From contig JAIRQA010000012.1 of assembly GCA_031256715.1 (NCBI GenBank), positions 525 through 64,524 of the forward strand: DNA of 64,000 nt, given 5' to 3'. Positions 9,592 through 59,352 of the stretch are shown piece after piece; the stretch's first letter is position 1, and every line of letters begins with the position of its first letter. The notes under the pieces are model-generated. The model had not been told where the DNA came from and ran no database searches. It worked only from the letters and a program-made list of their open reading frames with translations. The translations under genes and the position numbers were made by a program. Source of the stretch: Coriobacteriales bacterium. Its GTDB lineage: Bacteria; Actinomycetota; Coriobacteriia; Coriobacteriales; UBA8131.

Positions 9592-9680
9592 GGATGAAAC
9601 AAATAAAGCATATGACTTGTAGGATGGGCAAAAACATTACAAAATGTCATTTAGAACTCGTTTTAGAATTTCATGATGCC

Positions 9681-9722
9681 GCTTGCGAGGATTCTGCTTG
9701 CGAGGATTCTGCTTGCGAGATT
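9681..9722. repeat. 15-bp tandem repeat x2.8 ('gcttgcgaggattct')
   Basis: Copies at 9681, 9696 and 9711, downstream of ftsZ. Confidence 0.8.
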
Positions 9723-35710: not shown

Positions 35711-37321
35711 CTATGCCGAGTTTTCGCAGACCTGTTTGCGCAAAGGCTTTATGCACAACAATAGCAAAATAATACCAAGCAGATCAGCAACTGCCAAGAA
35801 TAATAGCACCACTGCGGCATCAAGCCCAATTTGCAATAATGCACCGCCAATTACAGGAGACGCCACGGCACCCAAACGGCCGACACCTAAAGTAAAGCCA
35901 AGGGCACCTGTGCGTATGTGTGAGGCAAAGGCGTTAGAGACAAGCGTGTTGGTTAGGTTTTGTGCGCTTATGGCGCCAACACCGGCACAAAAGACCAGGC
36001 AGAACAATAAGATGGGGTTATCTATACGTAGAGCAATTGCAGACAATGAGACTGCAGCCAAAAGCGCGCAACTTATAGCAACAAGATTAACGCCAAGTTT
36101 GCCGGCAACTCTAGCGGTAAGTAGTGAGCCCAAGACACAACCCAAATTTAATGTCATCATTAATTGCAAGGAGTTGTCTAAAGGAATATTAAACTCTCGC
36201 ATTAATTGTACAAGCCAGGTGCTAATCCCATAATATGCCATAAGAAACATAAAGGTGGCAAGCGCAAGTAGTAGCAACAATAAGCGACCTGTCTTCCCAA
36301 AAGCTCGCAGACTAAAACGTGAGCATTGGGCATCTTCGGCTTCTTGCTTGGTGGTAGACGTGCTTACTTCTCTACATAATTCTTTATATAATTCACCATT
36401 CGTTTCATTGCATATCTTTGCGTTTGCAGTTGCATTAGTTTTTGCGCTAATTTTTGCTGCGGAGATTTGCTTTGCCTCGCCTTTTGCAAGTTTGCTATAC
36501 GTTGCTAAGACTAACGCCAAGCCTATGACTCCCGCAACAACCATTATCATTCGCCATCCGCTTAGGGCAAGAATCAGGCTTGTGCTTGCTGCGGCAGCAA
36601 ATCCACCCAAGGGTACTCCAGACATCACCAGGCTAATTACAAAGGCAGACTGACTTTGCTTGCACTGCCCGCGCGCAAAAGATAGAGCGACAGGAAGCAC
36701 TACTCCAAGACCAAGGCCCGCCAATGCACGTGATGCGCCCAGAACATAAAGGTTTAAAGAGATAGCTCCAAGAAACATTGCCAAGCTAAACCAGATGATT
36801 CCTAAGCATATGGTTTTGGTGTGTCCCCAGAAGTTATTAACTTTGCCTGCGAATATGCCACCTACGAACATGCCAAGAAATGTGATACTGCCAATGGCAC
36901 CGCCTATGACTTTGTTTACACCCATAGAGGTATCTTGTATTAAAGATGGCAAAACACTGCTGTAGGCAATGAGGTCAAAGCCTTCGCAAAACATTACAAG
37001 TGCAACTATGACAACAAGCGACCAAGAACATTTTGTATGCGCTTGAGTTGATGACTGCGTTTGAGCAAGCTGCTGCGCTTGTGTTTGAGTTTTAGCGTGC
37101 TCGTGCTCCTGCTTCTGCACTTGCGCTTGAGTTGGCATATGCGCTTGGATGTTGGGTGAGTTGTTTAGGGAATCGCTTGGTAACTTGTTTGGTAAATGAA
37201 GATCGCTCTTAGTGCGCACATCATCCCGCTCGCTTTCCCGCACATCATCCCGCTTGCTATCCCGCCCATCATTTCCTACATCATTTCCTACATCATCCCG
37301 TTCGCTATTATTCACGTTCAT
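35711..37321 (-). CDS. MFS transporter with ~100-aa charged/low-complexity N-terminal extension
   Basis: Predicted 12-TM profile and a motif-A-like loop (GGIFAGKVNNFWGHTKTI). The N-terminus has DDV(G/R)-type repeats. It lies immediately downstream of the AraC gene on the same strand. Confidence 0.85.
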   Translation of the reverse strand: MNVNNSERDDVGNDVGNDGRDSKRDDVRESERDDVRTKSDLHLPNKLPSDSLNNSPNIQAHMPTQAQVQKQEHEHAKTQTQAQQLAQTQSSTQAHTKCSWSLVVIVALVMFCEGFDLIAYSSVLPSLIQDTSMGVNKVIGGAIGSITFLGMFVGGIFAGKVNNFWGHTKTICLGIIWFSLAMFLGAISLNLYVLGASRALAGLGLGVVLPVALSFARGQCKQSQSAFVISLVMSGVPLGGFAAAASTSLILALSGWRMIMVVAGVIGLALVLATYSKLAKGEAKQISAAKISAKTNATANAKICNETNGELYKELCREVSTSTTKQEAEDAQCSRFSLRAFGKTGRLLLLLLALATFMFLMAYYGISTWLVQLMREFNIPLDNSLQLMMTLNLGCVLGSLLTARVAGKLGVNLVAISCALLAAVSLSAIALRIDNPILLFCLVFCAGVGAISAQNLTNTLVSNAFASHIRTGALGFTLGVGRLGAVASPVIGGALLQIGLDAAVVLLFLAVADLLGIILLLLCIKPLRKQVCENSA

Positions 37322-37490: not shown

Positions 37491-38510
37491 CTAGCTGTTG
37501 CAAGCCTGAGACTCGTTTCTGTTCATACTCATGCGGTCGCGATAAGCCGAGGGCGCTTCTCCAAAGACTCGCTTGAATGCTGCCGCGAACTTGCTGGGAC
37601 TTTCGTAGCCCATTGCCTCGGCAACCGAAAACACCAACTCGCCATCTGCGAGCATTGTGCTTGCCTGCTCCATGCGTGTTCGTGTCATGAAGCGTGCATA
37701 GGGCTCGCCATATAACTCTTTAAAAGCGGTTTTAAACATCGTTGGGCACATGCCAAATTTTCTAGAGATATCGCCAATTGTGTATCGCGTAAAAAGATGA
37801 TTGACTGCATGGTTTTTGGCTTCGCTCGTTAGGCGCAAAATTTCAAACGCGCATTCCGGGCGGCTAAGGCTTTTTTTAGGAACAGCGCGCGCATCTATTC
37901 TTGCCAAGAGTTCTAGAACTCCAAGACGAAGTAGCGGTATAGCCGCATTGCGCTTATGAAGCTCGATGGTGTCAACGGCTTTCTCGATCCCTAAATCTAT
38001 AGACATAATAAATAGCATTTCGTTTTGGCAATATGAATCTATGAGACTAGACAATTTAATGCCCAAAGGCTCAAGTAAATCCTTAGAGTGCGACTCTACA
38101 AGCGCAATGTCTATAATCAAGCCAAAGCCACGATATCTATTTGATGGCAACTCTAAGTTCCAGCAGGCGTCAGGATTGGCGATGGGGGCACGCGCCCAAT
38201 CGGACACGCTGGTTAGGGCGAGCGAGACATCATTAGGAAGTAATGTAGAGAAGGACTTCCGCTTGGGAAACAAAACGCGAAGCATGCCTTCACGACAGAT
38301 GTTAACTTCTAAAATTGTGCGGGGGTTGGGTGAATCGCCAATGATGTCACGGGCGATTGCCATGTCGTTAAAGACGTAACAGTTTGATGAATTATACTGA
38401 TGAAAAGCGGCATAAAGTCCGGGAATTACCTTATAAACCCACATAAATGAGCTTTTTTCATTTCTGTGCGGCAGCAACTCAAATGCCAGAGAGTCATCGT
38501 CTTTGTACAT
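37491..38510 (-). CDS. AraC-family transcriptional regulator
   Basis: C-terminal double HTH (ISRKFGMCPTMFKTAFKELYGEPYARFMTRTRMEQA...VAEAMGYESPSKFAAAFKRVFGEAPSAYR). It is divergent from the ECF/NRPS operon. Confidence 0.9.
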   Translation of the reverse strand: MYKDDDSLAFELLPHRNEKSSFMWVYKVIPGLYAAFHQYNSSNCYVFNDMAIARDIIGDSPNPRTILEVNICREGMLRVLFPKRKSFSTLLPNDVSLALTSVSDWARAPIANPDACWNLELPSNRYRGFGLIIDIALVESHSKDLLEPLGIKLSSLIDSYCQNEMLFIMSIDLGIEKAVDTIELHKRNAAIPLLRLGVLELLARIDARAVPKKSLSRPECAFEILRLTSEAKNHAVNHLFTRYTIGDISRKFGMCPTMFKTAFKELYGEPYARFMTRTRMEQASTMLADGELVFSVAEAMGYESPSKFAAAFKRVFGEAPSAYRDRMSMNRNESQACNS

Positions 38511-38787
38511 CTGAACAATGTTGTCGCCAAGATGATATATATGCTTTGTAGGCTCCTTAATAGCTCTCGCCTCCTCTTCCTATAAATAAAAAATCTTTAT
38601 ATCCCAAACAGAATAAAACAGTTGCATTTGTCTTATTGCGTACAGATATCACGTCCGAATGGGCTAGTGAATATGTCCGTATGGTTCTTTTAGGATCATA
38701 AAAGTTAGCTTATACTAACTAATGTTATCACAACTTCTGCACATTGTGCAATAGAGAAATTTTTATAAAAGTATTTTTATAAGAGCG

Positions 38788-39618
38788 ATGGCTGCGAGGA
38801 GGCAGCGTTTAAGTATGACAGTGGCAATAAAAAGCTGGCGGGAAACAAGGAAAGGTAAACGCGCCTTAGATATAGAGCGCCAAATTGAGCGTTCTATGAA
38901 CGAAAGGCGTTCGCTTGATCCTCGTGCGCAAATAATAATTCTTATTGCAATGAATCTTATGGCAACGACACCTACGCCTATGGCCTTAGACATCATTGGT
39001 GTGTTTTTAGCCGCGGCAATTCTTGTTTACTGTAAGCGCTTGGCAGCGGCAACTGTTTGGCTTGTGGTCTATGTTATAGTTTGGCTTGCCGCGCTATTGT
39101 GCGCGATGTCGGCAGATCCTTTATTTGTGTCATCTGGGGCAATGCTCATGATGATGCGCAAGGTTTTTAGCATCGCTATGTTGGCAACAAACCTGATTTT
39201 TACAATTCGTGTAGGTGAGTTGGCTTGTGCGCTGCAAAGCATGCATGTGCCGCGTTTGGTAATCATAGCTCTTTGTGTGGTATTGCGTTTCTTTCCTATT
39301 TTGGGTGCAGAGGCATCTGCTGTTGTGCAAGCAATGAAGTTGCGTGGTATTCGGCTATCTTTAAAAAATATTGTTCGGCATCCGCTAAAAATGATTGAGT
39401 ACTTTGCAGTGCCACTGCTTTTGCGCATTTCTGTTGTTACAGATGAGATTGCTCGCGCTGTTACTGTGCGCGGAATAGACTCTAAGCACAAGCGTACATC
39501 ATTGCATGTGCTTCGCATAGGAGTTGCCGGATGGATTTTTCTGATTTTGGTTGCCATTTTTGCTGTTGCCTCTATAGTACTTGTTCGTGACGAAATTACC
39601 TTCATGGGGCTGTTTTAA
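38788..39618 (+). CDS. ECF transporter transmembrane (T) component, EcfT/CbiQ family
   Basis: Polytopic membrane protein with the two coupling-helix xRG motifs (AMKLRGIRL, AVTVRGID). The start is uncertain: ATG 38815 has SD GGAGG, and ATG 38896 gives a typical MxxxxSLDPRAQ N-terminus. Confidence 0.8.
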   Translation: MAARRQRLSMTVAIKSWRETRKGKRALDIERQIERSMNERRSLDPRAQIIILIAMNLMATTPTPMALDIIGVFLAAAILVYCKRLAAATVWLVVYVIVWLAALLCAMSADPLFVSSGAMLMMMRKVFSIAMLATNLIFTIRVGELACALQSMHVPRLVIIALCVVLRFFPILGAEASAVVQAMKLRGIRLSLKNIVRHPLKMIEYFAVPLLLRISVVTDEIARAVTVRGIDSKHKRTSLHVLRIGVAGWIFLILVAIFAVASIVLVRDEITFMGLF

Positions 39619-41441
39619 TGGCATACGCTATAGAATTTAAAGACGTAAGTTTTAGTTATGGTGCTTTATCAGAGCAGAAAAACGCTGTGCTTTCTAACAT
39701 TCACTTAAACGTGGCGCAAGGTGAATGCGTTTGTGTTACAGGCTCATCCGGATGCGGTAAGACTACACTCACGCGACTCGTTAATGGCCTTATTCCTTCT
39801 TTTTATGAGGGCACAAAGCAAGGTGAGGTTTTTGTTAATGGCATAGAGCTTGAGCAATGGGAGATGGACGAACTTTGTCGTGCGGTTGGGTCGGTGTTTC
39901 AAAACCCACGCAGTCAGTTCTTTAATTTAGACACGACGTCTGAACTTGCCTATGGTTGCGAGAATCTAGGGGTTAGTCGCGCAGAAACCCTGAGTAATGT
40001 TACTCGCGCGGCGGAGCTTTTAAACCTTCAGCATCTTTTAGATCGTGACATACACGATCTTTCTGGTGGCGAGCGCCAGCTACTGGCACTAGGCGCGGCG
40101 TGTGCCATGGGTGCTGACATCTTTGTTTTAGATGAGCCCACAGCCAACCTTGACGCGATTGCAACACAGGCGGTAAAGCGTACACTTCAGGCTCTTAAAA
40201 GCCAAGGGAAAACTATTCTTATGGTAGAGCATCGCCTGCATTGGCTTGATGGTTTGGTAGATCGCATGGTGTGCATGAGCGATGGGCGCATTATTAACGA
40301 TTATACAGTTAGCGAGTTTTGCAGATTGTCTACGGATGAGTTGGCTTTGATGGGGCTGCGTGCTTGGACGCTTTGCGATTTGCGTGTAAGCAAACATGAG
40401 ATAAACGCTTGCGAAAACGAACTACAAAATAGCGATGCGATCACAGTGGCACCATTTAGCATTCAGGCCGATAGCCTGCGTGCCAAACACCGTAAAAACA
40501 ATGAGGTGCTTAAGGGTCTGTCGTTTACGGTAACAGGGGGTCACGCGATTGCTGTCGTGGGGCGCAACGGACAGGGAAAGTCTACGTTGGCACATGTTAT
40601 TGCGGGACTTATGCGCGAGACCTATGGTGGCATCTCTGTTGACGCTCGCCCGCTTAGCGTGCGCGACCGCGTTGGCAACATCTATTTGGTGTTACAAGAA
40701 TCTGGGTATCAGCTTTTCGCTTCTAGCGTGCGCAAGGAGTTTACTATTGGCATGAAATCTGTAAGCGAAAATGACATGGCAGAAATTGATGATTTAATTT
40801 CGCGCTTTGCGCTTGTAGATAAAAGCGAGCGTCATCCGGCAAGTTTGTCGGGAGGCGAAAAGCAGCGGCTTGCCTTGGCGGTTGGCATTCATGCCGGAGC
40901 AAAGCTTTTAGTGCTAGATGAACCAACAAGTGGCTTAGATTATACAAATATGCGTCGCTGTGCCTTAGAGATTCGGCGACTTGTAAATTCTGGTCGTTGT
41001 GTTTTTGTAATCACGCACGATGTAGAGCTGGTTGCGGCGGCTTGCGATCAGGTTATAGAGGTAAATCGTGGTAGGGCGCATAGCACTTATGAGCTTAATG
41101 AGCGCACTTTGCCACGTGTGCTAAATATTTTGGCACCTGATTATGGCGAGTGTGCGCATGAGCAAGTGGCCTCGCATGAAAGCGAAAAAACGGCTTCACA
41201 TGAGCATGAGCAAGTGGTTGTGCGTGAAGACGAAAATTCGGCTTCGCATGAACGTGAACAAGTTGTTGCGCGCGGGCAAGACGAAGTGCTTATGCGCGGG
41301 CAAGACGAAGCGGTTGTAGTATCTGGCCTGCAAGCGCAAAGAAGGGATGTTGTTTATGCGCAGGAGCAAACGTTAAATGGCGCCGTCTTTTCTCGACATA
41401 AAAAAACTTTAAATGACAGGACGCAAGATATTCCGCCCTAA
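39618..41441 (+). CDS. ECF transporter ATPase, fused duplicated ABC domains (EcfA-EcfA')
   Basis: Two Walker A motifs (GSSGCGKTT, GRNGQGKST), two signatures (LSGGERQ, LSGGEKQ), and Walker B motifs IFVLDEPT / LLVLDEPT. The ATG overlaps the EcfT stop. About 100 aa of repeat-rich C-terminal tail. Confidence 0.9.
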   Translation: MAYAIEFKDVSFSYGALSEQKNAVLSNIHLNVAQGECVCVTGSSGCGKTTLTRLVNGLIPSFYEGTKQGEVFVNGIELEQWEMDELCRAVGSVFQNPRSQFFNLDTTSELAYGCENLGVSRAETLSNVTRAAELLNLQHLLDRDIHDLSGGERQLLALGAACAMGADIFVLDEPTANLDAIATQAVKRTLQALKSQGKTILMVEHRLHWLDGLVDRMVCMSDGRIINDYTVSEFCRLSTDELALMGLRAWTLCDLRVSKHEINACENELQNSDAITVAPFSIQADSLRAKHRKNNEVLKGLSFTVTGGHAIAVVGRNGQGKSTLAHVIAGLMRETYGGISVDARPLSVRDRVGNIYLVLQESGYQLFASSVRKEFTIGMKSVSENDMAEIDDLISRFALVDKSERHPASLSGGEKQRLALAVGIHAGAKLLVLDEPTSGLDYTNMRRCALEIRRLVNSGRCVFVITHDVELVAAACDQVIEVNRGRAHSTYELNERTLPRVLNILAPDYGECAHEQVASHESEKTASHEHEQVVVREDENSASHEREQVVARGQDEVLMRGQDEAVVVSGLQAQRRDVVYAQEQTLNGAVFSRHKKTLNDRTQDIPP

Positions 41442-41507
41442 GATCTAAGGCACCTATAGGACGCAAGATATTTTGCCTTAAGACCTAATGCGCCTATAGG
41501 ACGCAAC
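41418..41507. repeat. 40-bp tandem repeat x2.25 whose first copy contains the ECF-ATPase stop codon
   Basis: Units at 41418-41457 (TAA at 41439-41441) and 41458-41497, with a partial copy at 41498-41507. Confidence 0.9.
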
Positions 41508-41693
41508 AAAATCTAGCAAAAGAAGTTAATTAAAAAGCAAGCCAAAAAGCTGGGCAAAAATTAAGCAAGAACGAAGGTTATTTGATAATCAAGCAAGTAC
41601 AAAAGTTAGTCTTATACAACATTTGTAAGTGTAATATCTGTAAGCTCTCGCAGCTACAAGAGCCGCGGGAATTTAGAAAGGAAGCGTGATCTT

Positions 41694-42296
41694 ATGGCAA
41701 TAGGAAGTAATAATAAATGGCAAGGCAAGGATGTCATTCGTCTTGCGGTTTTTTCGCTCGTGCTATTTTTGGCAATGCTGGTGGGGGCGATGCCTTTTAG
41801 CATCACCTTAACCTCGTATTTTTATGGTGACGCGCTGGGAGCTGTGTTTGCCGGCATAGTTTGGATGTATATGCGTGGCACAATTCGCAAACCATGGGCT
41901 TGCCTGATTTCGTCGATCATTGTTGCCGCAGTTGCCTTTTTAATGGGGCAGATTTGGACGGCAGTACTTGGTATTGTTATTGGCGGCATTATCGCTGAGT
42001 TAATCGTGCGCGCAGGAAAATACACCAGTGCTGTAAGCAATATTATTGCTTTTGTTGTCTGGGTCTTGTGCTTTTGGGTGGGTCATGGCATTCTTGCGGT
42101 CTTTTCTGCCGATATGTTCAGAGAAATGATGCTTAACGCTCATATGACTGGCGAGCAGGTAGATTTGTTATTAAATGGCATTACAGGCATTAACTTAGTT
42201 CTTGCCCCCATTGCTTGCGTCGCTGGCGCACTAATTGGCAGTGGCTTGGGTTATGTCATCTTTAAAAAGCACTTTGCCCGCGCCACAGCATCGTAA
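41694..42296 (+). CDS. putative ECF transporter substrate-binding (S) component, MptD/Trep_Strep-like
   Basis: 200 aa and very hydrophobic (5-6 TM), with a basic C-terminal motif (FKKHFARATAS). It sits next to the ECF T and A-A genes. The family assignment is from memory of TIGR02185-type proteins and has not been verified. Confidence 0.55.
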   Translation: MAIGSNNKWQGKDVIRLAVFSLVLFLAMLVGAMPFSITLTSYFYGDALGAVFAGIVWMYMRGTIRKPWACLISSIIVAAVAFLMGQIWTAVLGIVIGGIIAELIVRAGKYTSAVSNIIAFVVWVLCFWVGHGILAVFSADMFREMMLNAHMTGEQVDLLLNGITGINLVLAPIACVAGALIGSGLGYVIFKKHFARATAS

Positions 42297-42314
42297 GGAA
42301 GGTTTGGGTTAGCG

Positions 42315-44381
42315 ATGACAAGCGAACAGCAAAAAAGCGTTAATACAAGCAATAACGAACGTAACGGCGAGCGCAGCAACGAACGCAGTGACGGACGTAA
42401 CAGCGAGCGCAGCAACGAGCGCAGCGGCGGACGTAATAGCGAACGTAATGACGAACGCACCAACGAACGCACCAACGAACGCGCAGAAACAAAAGGCGAT
42501 GGTCTTATTGCTTTAATTCGCTATGCTGGCAATCATCAGTGGCAGATTGTTCTTGGCTGTATATTGTCTGGCATCTCTGCGGTGCTAGCGCTCGTACCAT
42601 TTCTTTGCATTTGGCAGATTGCCTGCGAGCTATTAAGTGTGTTTCCAGATTTTTCTGCCGCCATAGATGTTGCGTTATACGCTTGGGTTGCTGCGGCTTC
42701 GGCGGCGGCAAGTGTCATCGCCTATATGGCTAGCTTGGGCTGCGCTCATCGTGCGGCGTTTCATGTTGCAACAAAAATTCGCAGTGTTTGCTGCAATCAT
42801 TTACTTCATGTGCCACTTGGTTACTATCAAAGTGTTTCTTCTGGTGAGTTGCGCCGCCGTATAGATTCCGGGGCCGACCTTACCGAAGACGTCATTGCGC
42901 ATAAATTACCAGATGTTGTTACTGCGATTGTAACACCTGTAGGCTTTATTGCCTTAAGTTTTGTTTTTGATTGGCGCTTGGGTTTGGCATGCCTGATACC
43001 TATCCTGCTTGGCTTTGTCTTATTAAGCATGACAATGGGCAAGGGAGCCGCAACCTCTATGGATGATTATCAGGATGCTCTTGATGCTATGAATGGTGAA
43101 GCTGTAGAGTATGTGCGCGGAATTCCTGTGGTAAAAATGTTTCAGCAGACGGTTTACTCGTTTAAGAGGTTTCATCACACCATCGTAGCCTACGGCAACC
43201 TTGCCTTTGGTTTTGCTCAATCTGGCTTAAAGCCGCAGCTTTATTTTGCGCTTGCCACGGCATCAACCTTTGTCATACTTATTCCGGTGGCGGCTTTTGC
43301 CGCAACGGCAGTAAGTAGCGATGCTTGGGCAGTTTTTGCGGCCGATGTTGTTTTTTATGCGGCGCTTTGTGGCATTACCTCCAGCATGCTTACACGCGTT
43401 ATGTACATAGGACAGTCTGTGATGTCGGCGCGTACTGCCATGCGCAATGTTAATGCGGTACTTGCGATAAAGCCTTTGTCGCAATTAGAGGTTCCTAAGC
43501 AGATGCGCAACGCCTCCATTGTTTTTGAAGATGTTTGCTTTACCTACCCAGATGCCTCTTATGAAGCCATCGCGCATGTTTCATTTAGTGTTCAACCTGG
43601 CATGCGCGTGGCGCTCGTTGGTCCATCTGGTGGTGGAAAATCTACTTGCGCATCGTTAATTCCTCGCTTTTGGGATGTAGACTCTGGCGCGGTAAAAGTA
43701 GGCGGATGCGATGTTCGCGATTTAGATCCTCGCGATTTAATGGAAAACGTGGCCTTTGTTTTTCAGGGTGGCAAGCTCTTTCGCGACTCTATTTTAGAAA
43801 ACGTGCGTGCTTCTCGCCCCGATGCAACGCGCGAAGAAGTTATGTTGGCACTAGCAGAAGCACACTGCGATGATATCATAGCTAAACTGCCTCAGGGAAT
43901 AGATACAGTTATTGGTGCTAGTGGCGTTTATCTTTCTGGTGGAGAGCACCAGCGCATCTTGCTTGCGCGAGCAATTCTTAAAGACGCGGCAATCGTTGTG
44001 TTAGACGAAGCAACAGCCTTTGCCGATGCCGATAACGAGGCGCGTATTCAGGAGAGCCTAAAGCGCATTATGAGTGGACGCACGGTTGTAACTATTGCAC
44101 ATAGGTTAACAACTGTTGTAGATGCCGATCAGATTTTGGTGCTTGCAAATGGAGCCATCGTAGAGCGCGGTACACATGAAGAGCTAATAAATGCAGCAGG
44201 GACATATAAGCGCATGTGGGACGACTACTGCAACTCTTTAACATGGGAGGTAACCGGCTTTGACGCAGGCGAAGATTTAAGCGCGCAAGCGCAGGGAGGC
44301 TCTGCAACAAATTTTCATCAACATCGCGAAACTCGCACAGGCGGGGCTGCAATCGCGCAAGCGCAGGGAGGTTACGAATGA
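42315..44381 (+). CDS. ABC transporter, fused permease-ATPase (type I exporter fold)
   Basis: N-terminal TMD and C-terminal NBD with Walker A GPSGGGKST, signature LSGGEHQR and Walker B VVLDEAT. About 60 aa of N-terminal (N/S/D)ER(S/N/T) repeat extension. Confidence 0.9.
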   Translation: MTSEQQKSVNTSNNERNGERSNERSDGRNSERSNERSGGRNSERNDERTNERTNERAETKGDGLIALIRYAGNHQWQIVLGCILSGISAVLALVPFLCIWQIACELLSVFPDFSAAIDVALYAWVAAASAAASVIAYMASLGCAHRAAFHVATKIRSVCCNHLLHVPLGYYQSVSSGELRRRIDSGADLTEDVIAHKLPDVVTAIVTPVGFIALSFVFDWRLGLACLIPILLGFVLLSMTMGKGAATSMDDYQDALDAMNGEAVEYVRGIPVVKMFQQTVYSFKRFHHTIVAYGNLAFGFAQSGLKPQLYFALATASTFVILIPVAAFAATAVSSDAWAVFAADVVFYAALCGITSSMLTRVMYIGQSVMSARTAMRNVNAVLAIKPLSQLEVPKQMRNASIVFEDVCFTYPDASYEAIAHVSFSVQPGMRVALVGPSGGGKSTCASLIPRFWDVDSGAVKVGGCDVRDLDPRDLMENVAFVFQGGKLFRDSILENVRASRPDATREEVMLALAEAHCDDIIAKLPQGIDTVIGASGVYLSGGEHQRILLARAILKDAAIVVLDEATAFADADNEARIQESLKRIMSGRTVVTIAHRLTTVVDADQILVLANGAIVERGTHEELINAAGTYKRMWDDYCNSLTWEVTGFDAGEDLSAQAQGGSATNFHQHRETRTGGAAIAQAQGGYE

Positions 44382-46144
44382 TGGCAAATGCTAACATAGA
44401 TAATAAACAACATGCTAGCTTTTTTATGCGCAAGTATAATCTGTCTAAGCAAGGGACACGAGTCTTTTATCGTGGTTTAGTTTGGTCTGCCATATCTAAC
44501 ATTGTTAATATGGCACCTGCTCTTATCTTGCTTATGGCACTTGTAGATATCGTGCGCCCTTTAGAAAATGGCGAAAGTTACGCGATTGAGCCATGGAAAT
44601 ATCTGCTCGCGTTTTTACTAACACTGCTTGCGGTGGGTATCGCGCAGGCACGCAAGTATCGCGCTACATTTTGCGATACTTACGAAGAAAGCAGCCGCCG
44701 TCGTATTGGAATTGCCGAGCGCCTGCGCGTCTTGCCCCTGTCCTTTTTTAGCAAACGCGACCTGGCAGACCTAACAACTGTCATCATGGGCGACTCCGAA
44801 AACAATGAGTTTGCAATCTCGCACACATTACCGCAACTTTGGGGCATGGTTGCCTTCATAATTGTCTCTGCTGTCGCGCTGCTTATTTGCGATTGGCGTA
44901 TGGCTTTGGCAAGTCTTTGGGTTGTGCCTGTTGCCTTAGGCGTAGTTTATGCCAGCAGAAGCACACAGAGAAAAATGGGCCGAGCCGTGGCTAATGCCAA
45001 GGTAGAAAGTGCCGAGTCTATACAAGAGTTAATCGAGTGCGCTCAAGACATTCGCGCTTGCAACCGCCAAGAGATTGTTGACGAGCACTTGTTGCAAAAA
45101 TTTATTTATGTCGAGAAGATGCAAGGGCGCTATGAGCTCTTTGCGTCGGTGGCACTTACTTCGGCACGTTCTTTTTTACAACTGGGCATAGCCACAACGT
45201 TACTTGTGGGTGTGGCGCTTCTTGTTATGGGCAGTCTTAGCTTGCCAATGTTTTTGCTTTTTGTTTTGGTGGCAACCCGAATCTATGACCCGGTTACAGA
45301 AATGCTGATGAACATTTTGGCGACCTTTGCCGCAGACGTGAGCAACGAGCGACTTGCCGCCATAGAAAACCACCCTATTGCCGGTGGCACAACAAGTTTT
45401 GTTCCTGAAAGTTTTAATATCACGTTTAAGGATGTGCATTTTGCCTATGATGAGGACGCAGATCCGGTTTTACATGGCGTTTCATTTATAGCGCGACAAG
45501 GACAAACCACCGCATTGGTAGGTCCATCAGGCTCAGGAAAGACTACGGTTTCTAAACTTGCTGCACGTCTTTGGGATGCACGGGAGGGAACTATTTGCTT
45601 GGACAACACAGACGTTACTTCTGTAGATCCGGAAACTTTACTAAGCAACTTTTCTCAGGTGTTTCAGGATGTTGTCTTGTTTAGTGGCACGATACGCGAA
45701 AATATACGTCTTGGTAAACGCGATGCTACAGATGAAGAGATAGAGGCTTGCGCACATGCTGCACAGTGCGATGAGTTCATTTTGCGTTTGCCAAAAGGCT
45801 TAGACACAGAACTTGCAGAAAATGGCGCGACACTATCTGGCGGTGAACGACAGCGCATCTCTATCGCTCGCGCTTTGCTTAAAGACGCGCCCATAGTCTT
45901 GCTTGACGAAGCAACTGCATCCCTAGACCCAGAGAGCGAAACGCTGGTGCAGCAGGCCATTGCCACGCTTACGGCAGGCAAGACAGTGCTCATGGTTGCT
46001 CATCGCATGCGTACTGTGCTACATGCCGACCACATAGTTGTGCTTGATGGCGGTCGTGTGGTAGAAGATGGCGCTCCCGACGAGCTGCTTAAACATGAGG
46101 GAATGTTTAAGCATCTATGCCAGTTGCAGGGTGCGTTGTCGTAA
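44378..46144 (+). CDS. ABC transporter, fused permease-ATPase (partner of the previous gene)
   Basis: The ATGA overlap with the upstream gene (44378-44381) implies coupling. Walker A GPSGSGKTT, signature LSGGERQR, Walker B VLLDEAT. Confidence 0.9.
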   Translation: MMANANIDNKQHASFFMRKYNLSKQGTRVFYRGLVWSAISNIVNMAPALILLMALVDIVRPLENGESYAIEPWKYLLAFLLTLLAVGIAQARKYRATFCDTYEESSRRRIGIAERLRVLPLSFFSKRDLADLTTVIMGDSENNEFAISHTLPQLWGMVAFIIVSAVALLICDWRMALASLWVVPVALGVVYASRSTQRKMGRAVANAKVESAESIQELIECAQDIRACNRQEIVDEHLLQKFIYVEKMQGRYELFASVALTSARSFLQLGIATTLLVGVALLVMGSLSLPMFLLFVLVATRIYDPVTEMLMNILATFAADVSNERLAAIENHPIAGGTTSFVPESFNITFKDVHFAYDEDADPVLHGVSFIARQGQTTALVGPSGSGKTTVSKLAARLWDAREGTICLDNTDVTSVDPETLLSNFSQVFQDVVLFSGTIRENIRLGKRDATDEEIEACAHAAQCDEFILRLPKGLDTELAENGATLSGGERQRISIARALLKDAPIVLLDEATASLDPESETLVQQAIATLTAGKTVLMVAHRMRTVLHADHIVVLDGGRVVEDGAPDELLKHEGMFKHLCQLQGALS

Positions 46145-47385
46145 TGATGTCTGCGAGTGCATCTTTGCCAAAAGCTTCTCTGGTTGGTTCTTGTAAGACT
46201 AGCTTTTTGCCAATGACAACTGTGCCGGCGACTTCTTTAATTGGTGCAGCCCCTACAGCTTCTACAGCAGCATCCTTTTCTGCCATTAATGTGGCATATG
46301 TCATGCTTGATGGCTATGAACATGAAAGCGAAGCAAGAATTTCTTCATTAATCTCGCGCTTAAGCAGACGCGTGTCTGAGGCTCGTATAGAAAAAGCAAG
46401 GCGGTTGCGACAACCAATAGACAAGCTAGCGTCTTTAACCGCCGGGGTACTTATTAACATTGTTGCTGAACCTTTTAAGGATAGACGAACCCTGCCGCTT
46501 AACTACGAACACAATGAGCACAATGAGCGCTATGAGCACAATGAGTATAACGGCTTCAGCAACAAGGACAGCTCTGGCAAGAATGGCAGCTATAGCAACA
46601 ATGATGGCTATAGCTACAATGGCAGCTATAGCAACAATGGCTGTTATGGCAACAATGATGGCTATAGCAACAATGGCAGCTATAGCAAGCCCGATTTTCC
46701 AAATGCTATGGGGCTGCACTATAACCTCTCGCATAGCAGGGCAGTTGCTTGTTGCGCAGTCTCGCGGTTTCCCGTTGGCATAGATGTAGAGGGCTATATT
46801 CATCACTTTGACGAGCTTTGCGCGATGTGTTTAACAACTGACGAGGACAGGCATATTAAAAAGCAAGCAAATCGCGCCGAACGCGTTAGATGCTTTACAA
46901 GGCTGTGGACGCGCAAAGAGGCACTTGGTAAGTATATAGGCTGCGGAATAGACGAGAGCATCTTGCGTGCTGACTTACTTCATTGGCCTCAAGGAGCGAA
47001 AGCTATTCTTGCGTCGCGACGTGTTAGTGATATAGCTAACACAGAAATCGCAAGTGTGGCGTCTGGCACACGAACAGCGTCATACTCAGACGCAACGCGT
47101 GACACACGAACAGCGTCAAGCTCAGACGCAACGCGTAGCACAAGCGATACGGCCAGTGGTGTTCCTCAGATAACAACCTACGACTTGCACGAAGCGTGCA
47201 TGTCTGTTTGCGGTCATGGCGAGGTGCATGTTTCTTGTTATTCCTTAGACGAGGTTATTGCGCTTGCTACCTTAGCACCTACCACTTTGCATCACTGTGC
47301 CCAGACGCCTAGCGCTTCTGAGCACTGTGCCCAGACGCCAGTGTTGCAGAACCATTGTAAAACCGAATTACATGAAAGCGAATAA
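46144..47385 (+). CDS. 4'-phosphopantetheinyl transferase, Sfp type
   Basis: Motifs LSHSRAVACCAVSRFPVGIDVE and FTRLWTRKEALGKYIGCG (the W/FxxKE(A/S)xxK motif). The start is uncertain. ATG 46144 overlaps the ABC stop (TAATG), while the conserved core begins near ATG 46303. A (N/G)(G/S)YSNN repeat insertion lies at about 46500-46690. Confidence 0.85.
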   Translation: MMSASASLPKASLVGSCKTSFLPMTTVPATSLIGAAPTASTAASFSAINVAYVMLDGYEHESEARISSLISRLSRRVSEARIEKARRLRQPIDKLASLTAGVLINIVAEPFKDRRTLPLNYEHNEHNERYEHNEYNGFSNKDSSGKNGSYSNNDGYSYNGSYSNNGCYGNNDGYSNNGSYSKPDFPNAMGLHYNLSHSRAVACCAVSRFPVGIDVEGYIHHFDELCAMCLTTDEDRHIKKQANRAERVRCFTRLWTRKEALGKYIGCGIDESILRADLLHWPQGAKAILASRRVSDIANTEIASVASGTRTASYSDATRDTRTASSSDATRSTSDTASGVPQITTYDLHEACMSVCGHGEVHVSCYSLDEVIALATLAPTTLHHCAQTPSASEHCAQTPVLQNHCKTELHESE

Positions 47386-47390
47386 TGTAA

Positions 47391-48995
47391 ATGAACGAAC
47401 AAATAGAGGCTCAACTAATAAAATCATATATAGATGGTGGCTACTGGCAAGATATAACACTAGGCGACTTTCTGCGCGATTGTGCGCGTAAATGGCCTAA
47501 GAATATTGCCGTGCTTGATGCCATGGAATCACTGACCTATGAAGAGCTTAATAAGGCGAGCGATAGCATCGCTTGTTATCTTGCAAAACTTGGCATCGCT
47601 TGTGGCGATCGTATTTTGTTTCAGATGAAGAATTGCGTTTGGCACACTGCTACATTATTTGGCATAGCCAAGGCAGGAGCTATACCCATTATGGCGCTTG
47701 GAGCGCATCGTTATAAAGAGCTTTTAAGCTTTGCGCAACGTGCCAATCCTGTGGCATTTATCACAAATGAGATATATCAGGGTTTTAACTATCCTGCTCT
47801 TGCCAAAGAGGTGCAATTAGATGCCCCAAGCATACGCGATGTCTTAACAGTTAGTGACATGATGCGTGCTGCTCATGAGGGTAACGTGCTTACGGCAGAA
47901 CAGTATGCAAAACGCAGACCAGAATTTACAGACCCTTGCGTGCTTACTTGTTCTGGCGGTTCTACTAACGTACCCAAGCTTATTCCGCGCAGACATACAG
48001 ATTACCTTTACGATGCCCAAACATTTGCCGCATTTTTAGACATGAAGCAAAGCGATGTTTATCTGATTGCCTTGCCAGCTTCGCATAATTTTGTCTTTGG
48101 TAACCCAGGGGTGTTGGGCACACTTTCGTTAGGGGCTACTGCCGTAATGTGTGAAAATCCCAGCCCAGACGAGATTTTACCCATGATAGACGAACATCGC
48201 GTAACTATCACCGCCTTAGTGCCCGCAGTACTTTCTGCCATGCTTGACACCTTGTCATGGGACGATGCCTATGACACAACTTGCTTGCGCCTCCTTTTGG
48301 TGGGAGGAGCCGTGCTAGAAGAACAACTTGCGCGTAAAACGCTACAAAAGTTTCCTGGTTGTTTGCGGCAGGTGTTTGGTACGGCCGAGGGTATTAACTT
48401 TTGTACGTCTGCTAACGACTCTGACGATATTGTAGTTAGCTGCCAAGGTAAGCCAATTTCGCCAGCTGATAAATGGCGCATTGTTAACGAAGATTTGTGT
48501 GAGGTTGCTCAAGGCGAGTCTGGCGAGCTTATTGCTTTGGGTGCGTATACCATACAGCACTATTATAATGCCCCTGAGGCCGAAGACTCTTTTACTGCGG
48601 ATGGCTATTATCGTACTGGCGATAAGGCTCATGTTAGCGCAGAAGGAAATCTGGTGGTAGAAGGTCGCGTTACAGAACAGATTAATCGAGGTGGCGAGAA
48701 GGTCATGCCCAGCGAAATTGAAGGCTATCTTGCTGCCTTTCCGGGCATTGAAGAAGTTCAGGTTGTTGGTGTTGCCGACGAATTGCTTGGTCAGCGTGTT
48801 TGCGTGTATCTGATTGGTGAGCCTGAGCAAACTCCTGAGCAAACGCCCACGCCCATGCAGTTAAATAGTTACCTTGCTAATTTGGGGGTTGCGGCGCACA
48901 AAAGTGTCGATCAAGTGCGCAGCATAGACTCATGGCCGCTTACAAGTGTTGGCAAGATTAATCGCAAGTTGCTTTGCGAATGGGCGGCGTCTTAA
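47391..48995 (+). CDS. aryl-acid (DHB/salicylate-type) AMP ligase, EntE/DhbE/YbtE family
   Basis: The family-typical N-terminus (YIDGGYWQDITLGDFL...WPKNIAV), A3-like CSGGSTNVPKLIPRRHTDY, YYRTGD and GRVTEQINRGGEKV. It stands alone directly upstream of an NRPS that begins with a carrier domain. Confidence 0.85.
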   Translation: MNEQIEAQLIKSYIDGGYWQDITLGDFLRDCARKWPKNIAVLDAMESLTYEELNKASDSIACYLAKLGIACGDRILFQMKNCVWHTATLFGIAKAGAIPIMALGAHRYKELLSFAQRANPVAFITNEIYQGFNYPALAKEVQLDAPSIRDVLTVSDMMRAAHEGNVLTAEQYAKRRPEFTDPCVLTCSGGSTNVPKLIPRRHTDYLYDAQTFAAFLDMKQSDVYLIALPASHNFVFGNPGVLGTLSLGATAVMCENPSPDEILPMIDEHRVTITALVPAVLSAMLDTLSWDDAYDTTCLRLLLVGGAVLEEQLARKTLQKFPGCLRQVFGTAEGINFCTSANDSDDIVVSCQGKPISPADKWRIVNEDLCEVAQGESGELIALGAYTIQHYYNAPEAEDSFTADGYYRTGDKAHVSAEGNLVVEGRVTEQINRGGEKVMPSEIEGYLAAFPGIEEVQVVGVADELLGQRVCVYLIGEPEQTPEQTPTPMQLNSYLANLGVAAHKSVDQVRSIDSWPLTSVGKINRKLLCEWAAS

Positions 48996-49065
48996 TTTAT
49001 GGCTGGCAGTCACAGGCAGCTTTCTTTGTGTTTACACCTGTTAGAAATGTAGTGAAAGGAACTTT

Positions 49066-52000
49066 ATGCAATCTGTTGATACTTGCGAAATTGCAGATGA
49101 TACTTGCGAAATTGCAGATATTATTCACAAACATACGCTACCATACGGCGGCAAGGATGAGACAAATCTAATTAAGGCAGGCATGAATTCATTGGCAATT
49201 ATGCGCCTTGCAAACCAATTGCGTCGTCAAGGTGCGCGAAAAGTCACTTTCTCTAAGCTGATGGTAGAACCTACACGCTGTGCTTGGCTAAAACTTGCGG
49301 GAGCAAATGTATCTAGTGCAACATGTGAAGTTTTCGCAACAACAACCGCGCCATCTACATTAACAATCGCGGCAGCCGAACAGACGGCCGTGACAAATGA
49401 ACAAACAACCGCACCATCTACACCAACAATCGCGACTGCCGAACAGACGGCCGTGACAAATGAACAAACAACCGCGTCCAATGAAGCAACAATCGCAACC
49501 ACTTCTAAAGACGACTTTCAACCTTTTGCGCTCACAGACATTCAACGAGCCTACTTTATTGGACGACAAGATGGAATACCCATGGGAGGCAATGGCTGCC
49601 ACGCATATCTAGAATTGCATGGACAAAATGTTGATCCCAAACGTTTACAGGATGCCTGGCAAATGCTATTTAATACTCATGCTATGTTGCGAGCATACTT
49701 TACAGATGATGGCAAGCAATGTATTAGCGAACAAGCATCACCATCTGCAAGTGAGCTTGTTGTCTGCAACTTAAGCATGTTAGAGCCAACGCGTGCACAG
49801 CAAGAGTTTATGGCTATTCGCGAAAAACTCGCGCATAGGCGTTTAGATGTAGCATCTGGACAAACATGTGGACTTTGCCTTGTCTTGCTTCCAAATTCTT
49901 TAACGCGGGTTTGCTTTGACATCGATCTTCTTGTCTGCGATGTTCAGAGCTTTCAGATTCTGTTACGCGATTTGGCCGCTGCCTATGCAGATGCTAGCTT
50001 ACCTTTGGCAGATCCTGCTTGGAGTTTCGCATCGTATCTTGCTCATGAAGATGTCTTGGCTAAGGCAGCTTCGCTAGAGCGCGAACAGGACGCGGCATAT
50101 TGGCAAGCACGCATCAGCAATCTTGCGCACGGTCCTAAGCTGCCAACTGTTGTGGACCCAGATACTGTCTTTTCTCCACATTATACAAATTATGCGCATC
50201 AGGTTTCTTCTGAAGCTTATGAGGCGTTAAAGCATCACGCGAATGCTCGCGGCGCGACGGTGGCCATGGTGTTGCTTACAGCCTATGCGCAAATCATTGC
50301 GGCGTGGAGCGAGAATCAGCGCTTCCTGATTAACATGCCGGTTTTTGCCCGTAATACCAGCGTTTCCGGCATTGAGGATGTCGTCTCGGATTTTTCGGAC
50401 ATACTTTTGTTTGAGGTTAACTGCCAAGAGCCTGCGACTTTTGAGGAACGCTTAAAGCAGATTAGCGAGCGTTTTTTGCAGGACATGGCGCATCGTTCCT
50501 ACAATGGTATCGCGGTGCAGCGCGATATCGCGGCGGCAGGAGGACCACAAATGGGCTTGGCGCCGCTGGTGTTTGCCTGCAATCTTGGCGAGCAGCTCTT
50601 AACGGATGTCTGCTTAAAGCATCTGGGCGAGCTTGGCTATATGACCTCGCAGACTCCGCAGGTACAAATAGATTGCCAGGCTTTTGACCACAAACAAGGA
50701 CTGCGACTTTCTTGGGACGTTGCTTTGGAGCTGTATCCAAATGGCATGTGTCAAACGATGTTTGTTGCGTTTTGTAATTTTGTCGAGAAACTCGCGGCTT
50801 CAGACGATGCCTGGCTTGCGCCCATTGATGTTTTGCCCAACGAACAGCGAATGCGTCGCAAGGCAGAGCTTGAGTTAATGCTTGAGCAGTCAGCGTTAGA
50901 TGCAGATTTGGCGCCGTTGCGCAAGGAGCTGCGTGAGGGGCAGACGTCAGGTGCAGATTTGGCGCCGGTGCGCGAGGAGTTGCGTGAGGGGCAGACGTCA
51001 GGTGCAGATTTGGCGCCGCTACATGCAGCTTTTGTTGTTAACGTGCATTCTAAACCTGAGGCAATAGCTCTAATAGATGCGCAGTCGGGAGAGAAAAGCA
51101 GTTATCGCCAGCTATATTTACGTGCCGGTGCCATTGCTGAATACATTCTTAGTGCCGGCACACAACATGGTGAGCTTGTTGCCATATGCCTTAAGCGAGG
51201 GCGCGACCAGGTGTGCGCGATGCTTGGTATTTGCATGGCTGGTTGCGCGTATGTGCCTATAGATGTTTCTCAGCCGCAGTCTCGTAAGCGCTTGATGGCA
51301 GAGAAATTAATGGCGCGGTATGTGCTTACGAGCAAGTCGTTGGCAGATGAGAGTACGATGTTTGAGCATGTTTTAGCTATAGAGGATGTAGCCGAGGTAG
51401 CTGAGGTTGCGTTTGAGGATAGTGCAGAATTTGCCATATCACAGTCACGCATTAATGATCTGGTTAAAAAGCATATGCCGCAAGCTAATGATACCGCATA
51501 CATCATCATGACCAGTGGTTCTACGGGAACGCCCAAGGGCGTAGAGATGTCTCATGGCGCAACATGGAACACACTTAGCGATGTTAATTCACGTCTGAAC
51601 GTAGGTGTGGGCGACACAATGTTAGCTGTATCTAACTATGATTTTGACCTTTCGGTCTACGATGTCTTTGGCATCTTGGGTGCCGGAGCGACCTTGGTTT
51701 GCATGCCCGATGATGCCCGACGCGACGCGGCGCGCGAGTTAGATTTTGTTTTGCGCTACAAGGTGACATTATGGAACACCGTCCCTATGCTTTTAGACAT
51801 GCTCATTACCGAGGCCGAGAGTAAAAAAGCCGAGCTGCCCTTGCGCGTTGTCATGCTTTCTGGTGATTGGATAGGCTTAGACTTACCGCAGCGCCTGAAA
51901 AATCTGGCTGCGAATTGCCGTTTTATTGCGATGGGCGGCGCCACCGAGGCAGCGGTTTGGTCTAACTGGCAAGAAGTTAATTTGCCTATACCAACGCATT

Positions 52001-56745: not shown

Positions 56746-56753
56746 CAACTGCA

Positions 56754-57563
56754 ATGAATAACAGCTGCAAGGAAAAAATAATTGTAATGAATAACAACCA
56801 ACAAAAAGCCGCTATTCGCACAAACCCATGGGTGCTTTTCTCAACAGATTCTTTAATAGATGTTTCGGCACAGGTAATTTGTTTTCACGCTGCTGGGTGC
56901 CAGCCAACAGGCTTTGTAAGTTGGCGGCGATATTTTTCTAAGCAAGTTGCTGTTGTGCCCATTGTCTTGCCAATGCATGGCAGTCGTCTAAGGGAATGCA
57001 TGCCTTATAGCCTGCAAGAGATTGCCGGCAATTTTGTTGCCACGAGTTTAGAGCTATTCAGCCGCCCTACGATTTTGTTTGGGCATAGCATGGGTGCGAT
57101 GATTGCCTACGAGGTAGCCTGCTTGCTTGAGGCGCGTGGCAGATTGCCTTTGGCGCTTGTTGTTTCTGGGGCTCAGTCTCCAGACAGACGCGAGGTGGTA
57201 GATCGCACCATTGGGCTTACAGATGAAGAATTTCTTGATGTGTTGCGCGCCTATGGTAGCATCAGCGAAGAACTGCTGCAAAATCGCGAATTTTTAGATT
57301 ACTACTTGCCTGTTGCTCGCAGCGATTTTGCCCTATGCGAACGTTACAAGTGGCGGCGACAACCAGCGCTTATGTTGCCTATTCACACTTTTAATGGCGT
57401 GGATGATACCCATATTAGCAAGGATGGCATAGAGCAATGGAGCAGCTTTTCTAGGATTTGTTGTATGCATCATTTTTTTGATGGCGGGCATTTTTATTGC
57501 GACCAGAGCCCCGAAGAGGTGTGTGCGCGCATTGAAGCACTGATTAGAATGACATTACGATAG
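56754..57563 (+). CDS. type II thioesterase (alpha/beta hydrolase)
   Basis: GHSMGAMIAYEVA (GxSxG) and a C-terminal GGHFY, at about 250-270 aa as in YbtT/PchC/GrsT-type enzymes. Alternative start at 56787. Confidence 0.85.
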   Translation: MNNSCKEKIIVMNNNQQKAAIRTNPWVLFSTDSLIDVSAQVICFHAAGCQPTGFVSWRRYFSKQVAVVPIVLPMHGSRLRECMPYSLQEIAGNFVATSLELFSRPTILFGHSMGAMIAYEVACLLEARGRLPLALVVSGAQSPDRREVVDRTIGLTDEEFLDVLRAYGSISEELLQNREFLDYYLPVARSDFALCERYKWRRQPALMLPIHTFNGVDDTHISKDGIEQWSSFSRICCMHHFFDGGHFYCDQSPEEVCARIEALIRMTLR

Positions 57564-57787
57564 AAGAAAATGCTTTTGGCTTCTGGGCATTTTAAGCTAG
57601 GCATCGAAGCGCAGATTAGAATGAACTTACGTTAGACGTAAATGCTTTGGGCTTTGGGTATTTTGAGCCAAGCATCGAAGCGCAGATTAGAATGAGCTTG
57701 TGATAGACGTAAATTAGAGTGAACTTATGATGGACGTAAGTTAGAGTGAACTTATGATGGACGTAAGTTAGAGCAAACTTACTTTAG
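57529..57787. repeat. ~72-bp tandem repeat x2.6 followed by 27-bp repeat x2.5; the first copy is the 3' end of the thioesterase gene
   Basis: 72-bp units at 57529-57600 (includes ...RIEALIRMTLR-TAG, stop at 57561-57563), 57601-57671 and 57672-57713 (partial). 'ttagagtgaacttatgatggacgtaag' occurs at 57714 and 57741, with a degenerate copy at 57768. Confidence 0.9.
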
Positions 57788-57826
57788 ATGTTGATAAGAA
57801 TGAACACACGAGGAGAGATCAAAACA

Positions 57827-59278: not shown

Positions 59279-59352
59279 ACATGCATAAGAACAACCTAGA
59301 GAATAAAAACTTGAATAATCAATTAACAAACAAACAACCTAAGGAGCAAGTA

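Follow-up and report, generated by a model that had tools for sequence, protein, structure and literature searches.

What does an energy-coupling factor (ECF) importer do at the head of a nonribosomal peptide synthetase (NRPS) operon, and what role does a neighbouring pair of exporter-fold ATP-binding cassette (ABC) half-transporters play there? This question is raised by a 64-kb stretch of a metagenome-assembled Coriobacteriales genome, referred to below as the window. A preliminary description had placed a complete ECF module and a YbtPQ-like ABC pair at the head of the NRPS gene string, and had taken the arrangement to be unusual and possibly a novel uptake route. The gene order was borne out: an unbroken plus-strand string runs through the T component, the fused A-A ATPase, the S component and the two ABC half-transporters, and the phosphopantetheinyl transferase (PPTase), aryl-AMP ligase, NRPS, type II thioesterase and two condensation-like proteins follow on the same strand with short gaps between them. 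The claim of novelty did not hold, because the equibactin locus of Streptococcus equi has the same combination. We consider it probable that the window carries a metal-regulated, equibactin-type metallophore locus with ECF-mediated uptake and a product of the aryl-thiazoline class; what is new here is an equibactin-type example in gut actinobacteria, the system itself being known, if poorly characterised. The features of the locus are the following.

38704..38719, no strand: palindromic operator GTTAGCTTATACTAAC (GTTAG-N6-CTAAC), core of the EqbA-type operator
38815..39618, plus strand: ECF T component (CbiQ family; PF02361, two xRG motifs), open reading frame (ORF) opening at 38788
39618..41441, plus strand: fused A-A ATPase of the ECF module, two ABC_tran domains, low-complexity C-terminal tail
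41694..42296, plus strand: MptD/Trep_Strep-family ECF S component, 200 aa, PF09605 and TIGR02185 above cut-offs
42315..44381, plus strand: ABC half-transporter 1 (YbtP/IrtA-like), N-terminal (NERS)n tail, without SID domain
44378..46144, plus strand: ABC half-transporter 2 (YbtQ/IrtB-like), ATGA overlap with half-transporter 1
46117..47385, plus strand: Sfp-type PPTase, ACPS domain, start uncertain, low-complexity insert
47391..48995, plus strand: stand-alone aryl-AMP ligase (DhbE/EntE-like), TIGR02275 460 bits, under the equivalog cut-off
49066..56745, plus strand: NRPS ArCP-Cy-A-T-Cy-A-T, 2559 aa (Pfam; Cy, A3 and T motifs)
56754..57563, plus strand: type II thioesterase, PF00975 127.5 bits
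57788-59278 and 59281-60702, plus strand: two stand-alone condensation-like proteins, PF00668, xHxxxDD motifs

Transport and biosynthesis genes compared with known systems

The equibactin locus eqbA-N of the S. equi integrative conjugative element (ICE) ICESe2 (Heather et al. 2008, PMC3672683) joins, like the window, ECF S, T and fused ATPase genes and a YbtPQ-like heterodimer to a PPTase, a stand-alone aryl-AMP ligase, Cy-domain NRPSs and a type II thioesterase, carries the operator core GTTAG-N6-CTAAC and has no aryl-acid synthase in the cluster. In its annotation, eqbH encodes the S component, eqbI the T component and eqbJ a duplicated ATPase; eqbK and eqbL encode a heterodimeric ABC transporter whose identity to YbtP and YbtQ is 28-30%. 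Deletion of eqbHIJ abolished the iron accumulation that depends on the NRPS product and left active product accumulating extracellularly, and deletion of eqbKL had only a slight effect, import not being lost (PMC3672683). The eqbHIJ genes are needed for import and supply the genetic evidence that bears on the predicted ATP-dependent import through the S component (PMC3672683), and ECF-linked metallophore uptake is already documented, although thinly. The combination of ECF module, ABC pair and NRPS is also known from Clostridium kluyveri, Staphylococcus lugdunensis, Mycobacterium avium subsp. paratuberculosis (MAP) and Clostridioides difficile RT023, the last on a conjugative element with an AraC gene.

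The window differs from the equibactin locus in gene order (T-AA-S-ABC-ABC at the operon head, against S-T-AA-ABC-ABC after the NRPS genes in eqb), in its regulator (AraC, against the DtxR-like EqbA), in having a single two-A-domain NRPS where eqb has EqbE and EqbG, in lacking a thiazoline reductase but carrying two free C-like proteins, and in its host, a Coriobacteriales chromosome rather than a Firmicutes ICE.

Two further loci share parts of this layout. In MAP the mptABC-mptDEF genes lie beside the sid NRPS in LSP14 (PMC4298942) and encode an IrtAB-like ABC transporter, the MptD protein for which the S family is named, a CbiQ-type permease and a cobalt-type ATPase, next to a siderophore-like NRPS and an MFS (major facilitator superfamily) gene; the link to the MAP island drawn in the preliminary description therefore stands. 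Unlike the window, the MAP locus is Zur-controlled, has three mptABC genes and has an NRPS of another type with a thioester reductase; mptABC and mptDEF are induced by zinc starvation and are zinc-specific (PMC4298942). In Streptococcus pneumoniae, SP1433-SP1438 (bioRxiv 10.1101/367086) combine AraC, an ABC pair and ECF S, T and A genes in one chelator-induced operon that responds to Zn, Co and Ni chelation and requires the AraC protein for induction, but without an NRPS and in the order ABC-ABC-S-T-A. The documented metal thus differs between these systems, being iron in S. equi and zinc in MAP and S. pneumoniae.

Judged from family membership, the adjacent S, T and A genes of the window form a complete ECF system of the MptD family with dedicated T and A-A components. 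The T component matches PF02361 (CbiQ family) with 55.8 bits, and its xRG motifs (LRG at 185-187 and VRG at 227-229) contain R186-G187 and R228-G229, which are invariant in eight orthologues; because of the alignment of these orthologues, the likely start is moved to the ATG at 38815 (M10; 267 aa). The A-A ATPase exceeds the cut-off of the cbiO subfamily model TIGR01166 (244 bits; cut-off 212) and, with 287 bits, stays under the thresholds of the ECF_ATPase equivalogs (315 and 330). Canonical Walker A, signature and Walker B-Glu motifs are found at both of its sites, and canonical motifs are present in all four nucleotide-binding domains (NBDs) of the A-A protein and the ABC pair.

The hydrophobic 200-aa protein with a basic C-terminus, described earlier as S-like, proved to be a member of the family in searches with hidden Markov models, matching PF09605 (Trep_Strep) with 125.5 bits (cut-off 28.7) and TIGR02185, the "MptD family putative ECF transporter S component", with 103 bits (cut-off 76.45). 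Its C-terminus FKKHFARATAS contains the basic KKHF motif of the family, with K192, H193 and F194 (near-)invariant, whereas the KAGI(V) portion of the family ending LKKHFxKAGIV is not retained. The protein is 100% identical to one annotated under the same family name in an NCBI metagenome-assembled Coriobacteriales genome and 75% identical to that of Slackia exigua, and its AlphaFold2 (AF2) model (pLDDT 94) has six long and two short helices. To our knowledge, neither a ligand nor a structure has been determined for any member of the MptD/Trep_Strep family.

YbtPQ and IrtAB import aryl-thiazoline and aryl-oxazoline siderophores by means of an exporter fold. Among solved half-transporters, the top match of ABC half-transporter 1 is YbtP (315.6 bits), followed by IrtA (299.6), and that of half-transporter 2 is YbtQ (284.5 bits), followed by IrtB (247), all of these scores being above those of MsbA and Sav1866; full-length P-glycoproteins score higher solely because they give two matches each. 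The cognate pairing is that of YbtPQ from Yersinia and uropathogenic Escherichia coli (6p6i) and of IrtAB from Mycobacterium (6tej, 7wiu), half-transporter 1 corresponding to YbtP/IrtA and half-transporter 2 to YbtQ/IrtB, and the heterodimer-type coupling by an ATGA overlap at 44378 was confirmed. On these scores the pair belongs to the YbtPQ/IrtAB clade and the label YbtPQ-like is justified. Unlike IrtA, half-transporter 1 has no SID (reductase) domain detectable with Pfam at its N-terminus, the first 75 residues of which are the (NERS)n low-complexity tail, and unlike YbtPQ and IrtAB, the pair is always partnered with an ECF system. It may act as a second importer, as those two do, or as a recycler or exporter of ligand: YbtPQ and IrtAB import, yet the S. 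equi genetics favours the ECF module as the main route of import.

The NRPS has an N-terminal carrier domain, two A3 motifs, two T motifs and two Cy motifs of the form DxxxxDxxS (DLLVCDVQS at 287 and DGILMDGWS near 1499), and the HHxxxDG motif was found in neither of its condensation-type domains. An ArCP-Cy-A-T-Cy-A-T synthetase combined with a stand-alone aryl-AMP ligase is therefore predicted to give an aryl-capped double thiazoline or oxazoline. Such aryl-capped thiazoline/oxazoline chemistry is that of pyochelin, yersiniabactin and equibactin, and the aryl-capped double-Cy architecture is typical of pyochelin/yersiniabactin-type chelators. We infer that the product should be an aryl-capped bis-thiazoline or bis-oxazoline chelator, both its chemistry and its metal being deduced from the genes. 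The A-domain codes, which we presume to be approximately DLYNMSMVWK (Cys-like, first A domain) and DMYNVGVIWK, were hand-read from sequence landmarks and are weak. A YbtU-like thiazoline reductase was not found, every ORF of at least 150 aa in 46117-60702 fitting another family and none being an oxidoreductase, and the two condensation-like proteins may act in chain release or amine condensation. The PPTase orthologues have 260-276 aa. No aryl-acid synthase is present in the cluster, and equibactin production required added salicylate (PMC3672683).

The locus might work as follows. The five-gene transport cassette would be controlled from the promoter with the EqbA-type operator GTTAG-N6-CTAAC, with the divergent AraC regulator alongside, and its fusion to the PPTase, aryl-AMP ligase, NRPS, thioesterase and condensation-like genes would couple it to synthesis of the predicted chelator. 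Metal scarcity would derepress the operon, and the chelator would be made from an aryl acid, possibly obtained through a neighbouring MFS transporter, and then exported. In the membrane, the S component would catch the metal-loaded chelator, which the ECF module would then bring into the cell, while the ABC pair would belong to the same functional unit, as a second importer or as an exporter or recycler of free ligand. ECF-dependent import and metal-responsive binding of EqbA enter this scheme from the literature on S. equi.

Operator and regulation

The palindrome GTTAG-N6-CTAAC emerged from an alignment of cassette upstream regions from eight related loci, in all of which it is conserved, and it has four matches in the window against 0.05 expected. 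The copy at 38704-38719 is identical to the core of the EqbA operator AACTATTATTGTTAGATGTATCTAACAATAATAGTT. In S. equi that operator was tested by electrophoretic mobility shift assay (EMSA), and EqbA is a short DtxR-like repressor whose binding responds to Fe2+, Zn2+ and Mn2+ (PMC3672683). The fetched loci, 1.61 Mb in all, contain 113 distinct copies, where about 1.5 would be expected by chance (an estimate; about 70-fold enrichment), and 66 of 96 loci have a copy at most 300 nt upstream of a cassette gene. The counts by gene are 44 for S, 32 for the ABC pair, six for T and four for AraC, with the motif centre typically about 30 nt from the start codon. Because the operator precedes both, the ECF and ABC genes belong to one regulon. 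Short, EqbA-like DtxR genes are embedded in 13 of the survey loci.

No riboswitch was found: there was no Rfam match at the gathering threshold in the whole window, nor at E<=1 in 38400-42400, and the promoter carries the EqbA-type operator core. A reading of the palindrome as an RNA hairpin or riboswitch was also rejected: its flanks pair no more often than shuffled controls, and it is therefore taken as a DNA site.

Three features are relevant to control of the locus in addition to the operator.

37491..38510, minus strand (divergent from the cassette): AraC-family regulator, HTH_18 63.4 bits
41418..41513, no strand: 40-nt tandem repeat, about 2.4 copies, spanning the ATPase stop codon
41605..41620, no strand: degenerate second copy of the operator region, GTTAGTCTTATACAAC, ahead of the S gene, recognised by sequence comparison

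The AraC gene also adjoins the cassette in L001, L002, L004, L009, L090, L093 and L095. The tandem repeat and the degenerate promoter-operator copy lie in a 253-nt gap between the ATPase and S genes, which folds no better than shuffled sequences (z = -1.05). An internal promoter may lie at the degenerate copy, which is missing from orthologues in which the AA-S gap is only 25 nt.

Other occurrences of the palindrome were also noted. The three remaining perfect matches in the window (17042-17057, 31218-31233 and 51621-51636) fall inside coding regions, namely a TrmD-like low-complexity insert, a leucine-rich repeat (LRR) surface protein and an NRPS A domain. In the AraC-less loci L091 and L092, a near-consensus sigma-70 promoter (TTGACA-17-TATTAT) followed by a weakened operator (GTTAG-N6-CTAAT) stands upstream of the T gene, and regulation may have shifted where AraC was lost. 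Just downstream of the operator, five loci have small genes (L018 15991-16614, L021 12920-13543, L036 9246-9857, L085 4785-5471 and L088 14946-15566) whose N-termini, judged by eye, resemble class I S-adenosylmethionine (SAM) methyltransferases. These genes may be a further member of the regulon; in MAP the methyltransferase gene MAP3738c adjoins mptA.

The transport cassette is retained without the peptide synthetase

The MptD/Trep_Strep family is small, with 257 matches in a single-sequence search of 1.84 billion cluster representatives. Species-representative genomes were scanned with the C-terminal motif KKHFxKAGI, by which at least 535 relatives were confirmed, and 80 loci were drawn from among the matches listed; because the motif is of Firmicutes type, the scan misses the clade of the window and leans to Firmicutes. 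The proportions given below refer to the 42 of these listed loci that come from other species and are flanked by 7 kb or more on either side. All of them (42/42, 100%) have T and A genes no further than 7 kb from the S gene, two exporter-fold ABC half-transporters are present in 81%, and an AraC gene lies within 7 kb in at least 52%. The cassette is widespread and is mostly found without any peptide synthetase, as in Clostridium sporogenes, Lysinibacillus, Stomatohabitans and other distant loci.

The association with NRPS genes was only partly upheld. It holds in Slackia exigua and in a second Coriobacteriales lineage, which have the full layout including the NRPS, and in A. ruminis (L014), which has Cy-domain NRPSs; the evidence in Clostridium senegalense (L044) consists of an aryl-AMP ligase match and, at the edge of the locus, a fragment of an NRPS, without any Cy motif being detected. 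It does not hold across the survey, nor in the nearest relatives of the window (67-80% identity across all five transport proteins), which have the cassette alone, without NRPS and without AraC. In L095 AraC is kept and the NRPS is absent, but a 65-residue PPTase match remains after the ABC pair at about 9400-9700. This remnant is consistent with deletion of the biosynthesis genes and, because of it, we favour NRPS loss over chance adjacency. By conservation and gene content, the ECF and ABC genes are not two independently recruited systems but one conserved cassette that persists without an NRPS, the five transport genes acting as one evolutionary and regulatory unit to which a Cy-type NRPS is at times joined. 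With the NRPS patchily lost and the cassette kept, the distribution looks like one of producers and non-producers.

The range of equibactin-type loci would thereby come to include Coriobacteriia of the gut and mouth, Slackia among them; siderophore-like systems have seldom been described from such anaerobes. The transport half is a self-contained cassette, with a metal-responsive operator in common, that persists where the biosynthesis genes are lost. What goes beyond routine annotation is the constant pairing of ECF and ABC genes, the operator shared across phyla and the spread of cassettes without an NRPS; together with the producer/non-producer pattern, the constant pairing poses a testable question about the uptake of thiazoline-type chelators by Gram-positive anaerobes.

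Several points weigh against an equibactin-type metallophore locus with ECF-mediated uptake. NRPS-like genes lie within 10 kb in only two of the 42 loci (5%), so that the substrate of the cassette need not be the product of this NRPS. Homology to the Eqb, Mpt and SP143x proteins is putative, being deduced from annotation, from gene order and from the shared operator. No ORF for an EqbA/DtxR-like repressor is present in the 64-kb window, which has the AraC regulator instead, and the ECF genes may be transcribed as two units, separated by the 253-nt gap that precedes the S gene. The score of the aryl-AMP ligase is under the cut-off of the dihydroxybenzoate (DHB) equivalog, and its pocket (HNFVFGNPG), hand-read and weak as an indication, looks atypical. 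Foldseek with the high-confidence S model recovered no solved S component, YkoE included, and the only structural-family link of the S component is a borderline profile match (E = 0.0012) to YkoE (5edl), the sole solved protein reached by the family profile. This match is colinear and of equal size, and YkoE likewise has a dedicated ECF module (YkoEDC, group I), but its substrate is thiamine or hydroxymethylpyrimidine (HMP).

A reading that goes further, and that we offer tentatively, is that MptD-type ECF modules and YbtPQ-like ABC pairs form an obligate two-transporter machine under a phylum-spanning EqbA-type operator, and that most carriers pirate thiazoline-type metallophores. One transporter would import the metal-chelate and the other would recycle or expel free ligand or import a second metal form, and the non-producing carriers would include many gut Firmicutes, Coriobacteriia, spirochaetes and even Methanobrevibacter. 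If true, such piracy would be a major unrecognised route of metal acquisition in anaerobic communities.

Strict division of labour, in which the ABC pair solely exports new metallophore and the ECF module solely re-imports it, as the preliminary description suggested, is in our judgement rather doubtful. The type IV exporter fold with canonical NBD motifs would suit it, as would the two-fold weaker effect of eqbKL-deletion supernatant, which fits reduced export (PMC3672683). A pure product exporter, however, should be lost from genomes without an NRPS, and the ABC pair is kept in 81% of the cassettes, nearly all of which lack biosynthesis genes, and in the nearest NRPS-less relatives at 69-74% identity. 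That the whole cassette is kept where the NRPS is patchily lost argues that the ABC pair serves the use of the chelator, beyond secretion of a home-made product. Moreover, the solved half-transporters that it resembles most are those of the two systems of this fold known to import, and the neighbouring MFS transporter could be the exporter instead.

The cassette could also be an independent metal-starvation uptake system for another chelate, a micronutrient or a xenometallophore, adjacent to the NRPS in a few lineages only through shared metal regulation. We regard this as unlikely, even though an NRPS is missing from the 10-kb surroundings of 95% of the 42 well-flanked cassettes and from the closest relatives of the window cassette, S. 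pneumoniae SP1433-1438 responds to Zn, Co and Ni chelation without one, and the Stomatohabitans cassette lies beside ZnuA/ABC-3 genes. Against it, the adjacent NRPSs that can be typed (the window, L001, L093 and L014) are all of Cy type, the chemical class transported by the ABC homologues YbtPQ and IrtAB, and L044 has an aryl-AMP ligase. The PPTase remnant of L095 points to NRPS loss, and cassettes without an NRPS fit piracy by non-producers. In S. equi, genetics links eqbHIJ to uptake of the cluster's own product (PMC3672683).

That the NRPS product is instead an antibiotic or signalling peptide, with the ABC pair for self-resistance or export and the ECF module unrelated, is most improbable, for although the role of the equibactin-like NRPS of S. 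lugdunensis is debated and a chrome azurol S (CAS) assay detected no iron-chelating activity of equibactin (PMC3672683), equibactin-dependent 55Fe accumulation was measured (PMC3672683), the promoter carries the core of the EMSA-tested, metal-responsive EqbA site, the NRPS has the aryl-capped double-Cy architecture described above and the ABC pair falls in the YbtPQ/IrtAB clade.

Two unusual cassettes were also seen among the fetched loci. In Stomatohabitans albus (L008, 8677-11220), three MptD-family S paralogues share one common T component and directly follow a ZnuA/ABC-3 zinc/manganese uptake operon, with the A-A ATPase and ABC pair a few kb downstream. Three Methanobrevibacter metagenome-assembled genomes (L052, L067 and L077) carry the full cassette of AraC, ABC pair and S-T-AA with a variant palindrome (TTTAGG-N4-CCTAAA), which suggests inter-domain transfer within gut communities or bin contamination.

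Neighbouring genes and low-complexity inserts

Two further genes flank the locus on the side of the AraC gene.

35711..37321, minus strand: MFS transporter, PF07690 143.5 bits, best family aromatic acid/H+ symporter
27787-35598, just upstream of the locus: 2603-aa LRR and CarboxypepD_reg protein

The MFS protein scores 204 bits against TIGR00895, under its cut-off, and is a candidate either for import of the aryl starter acid or for export of the metallophore; an MFS gene adjoins AraC in L093 and L094 too. The 2603-aa ORF was considered as part of an NRPS and rejected, Pfam identifying an LRR surface protein, and it is probably a cell-surface protein.

Many proteins of this genome carry low-complexity tandem-repeat inserts that are missing from their shorter Slackia orthologues. 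Such stretches are found at 41153-41441, 42315-42540, about 46480-46700 and 17040-17180, and examples include the C-terminal tail of the ATPase, the (NERS)n tract of ABC half-transporter 1, a YSNNGSY-rich segment in the PPTase, the linkers of the NRPS and a TSDTSD repeat in the TrmD-like protein.

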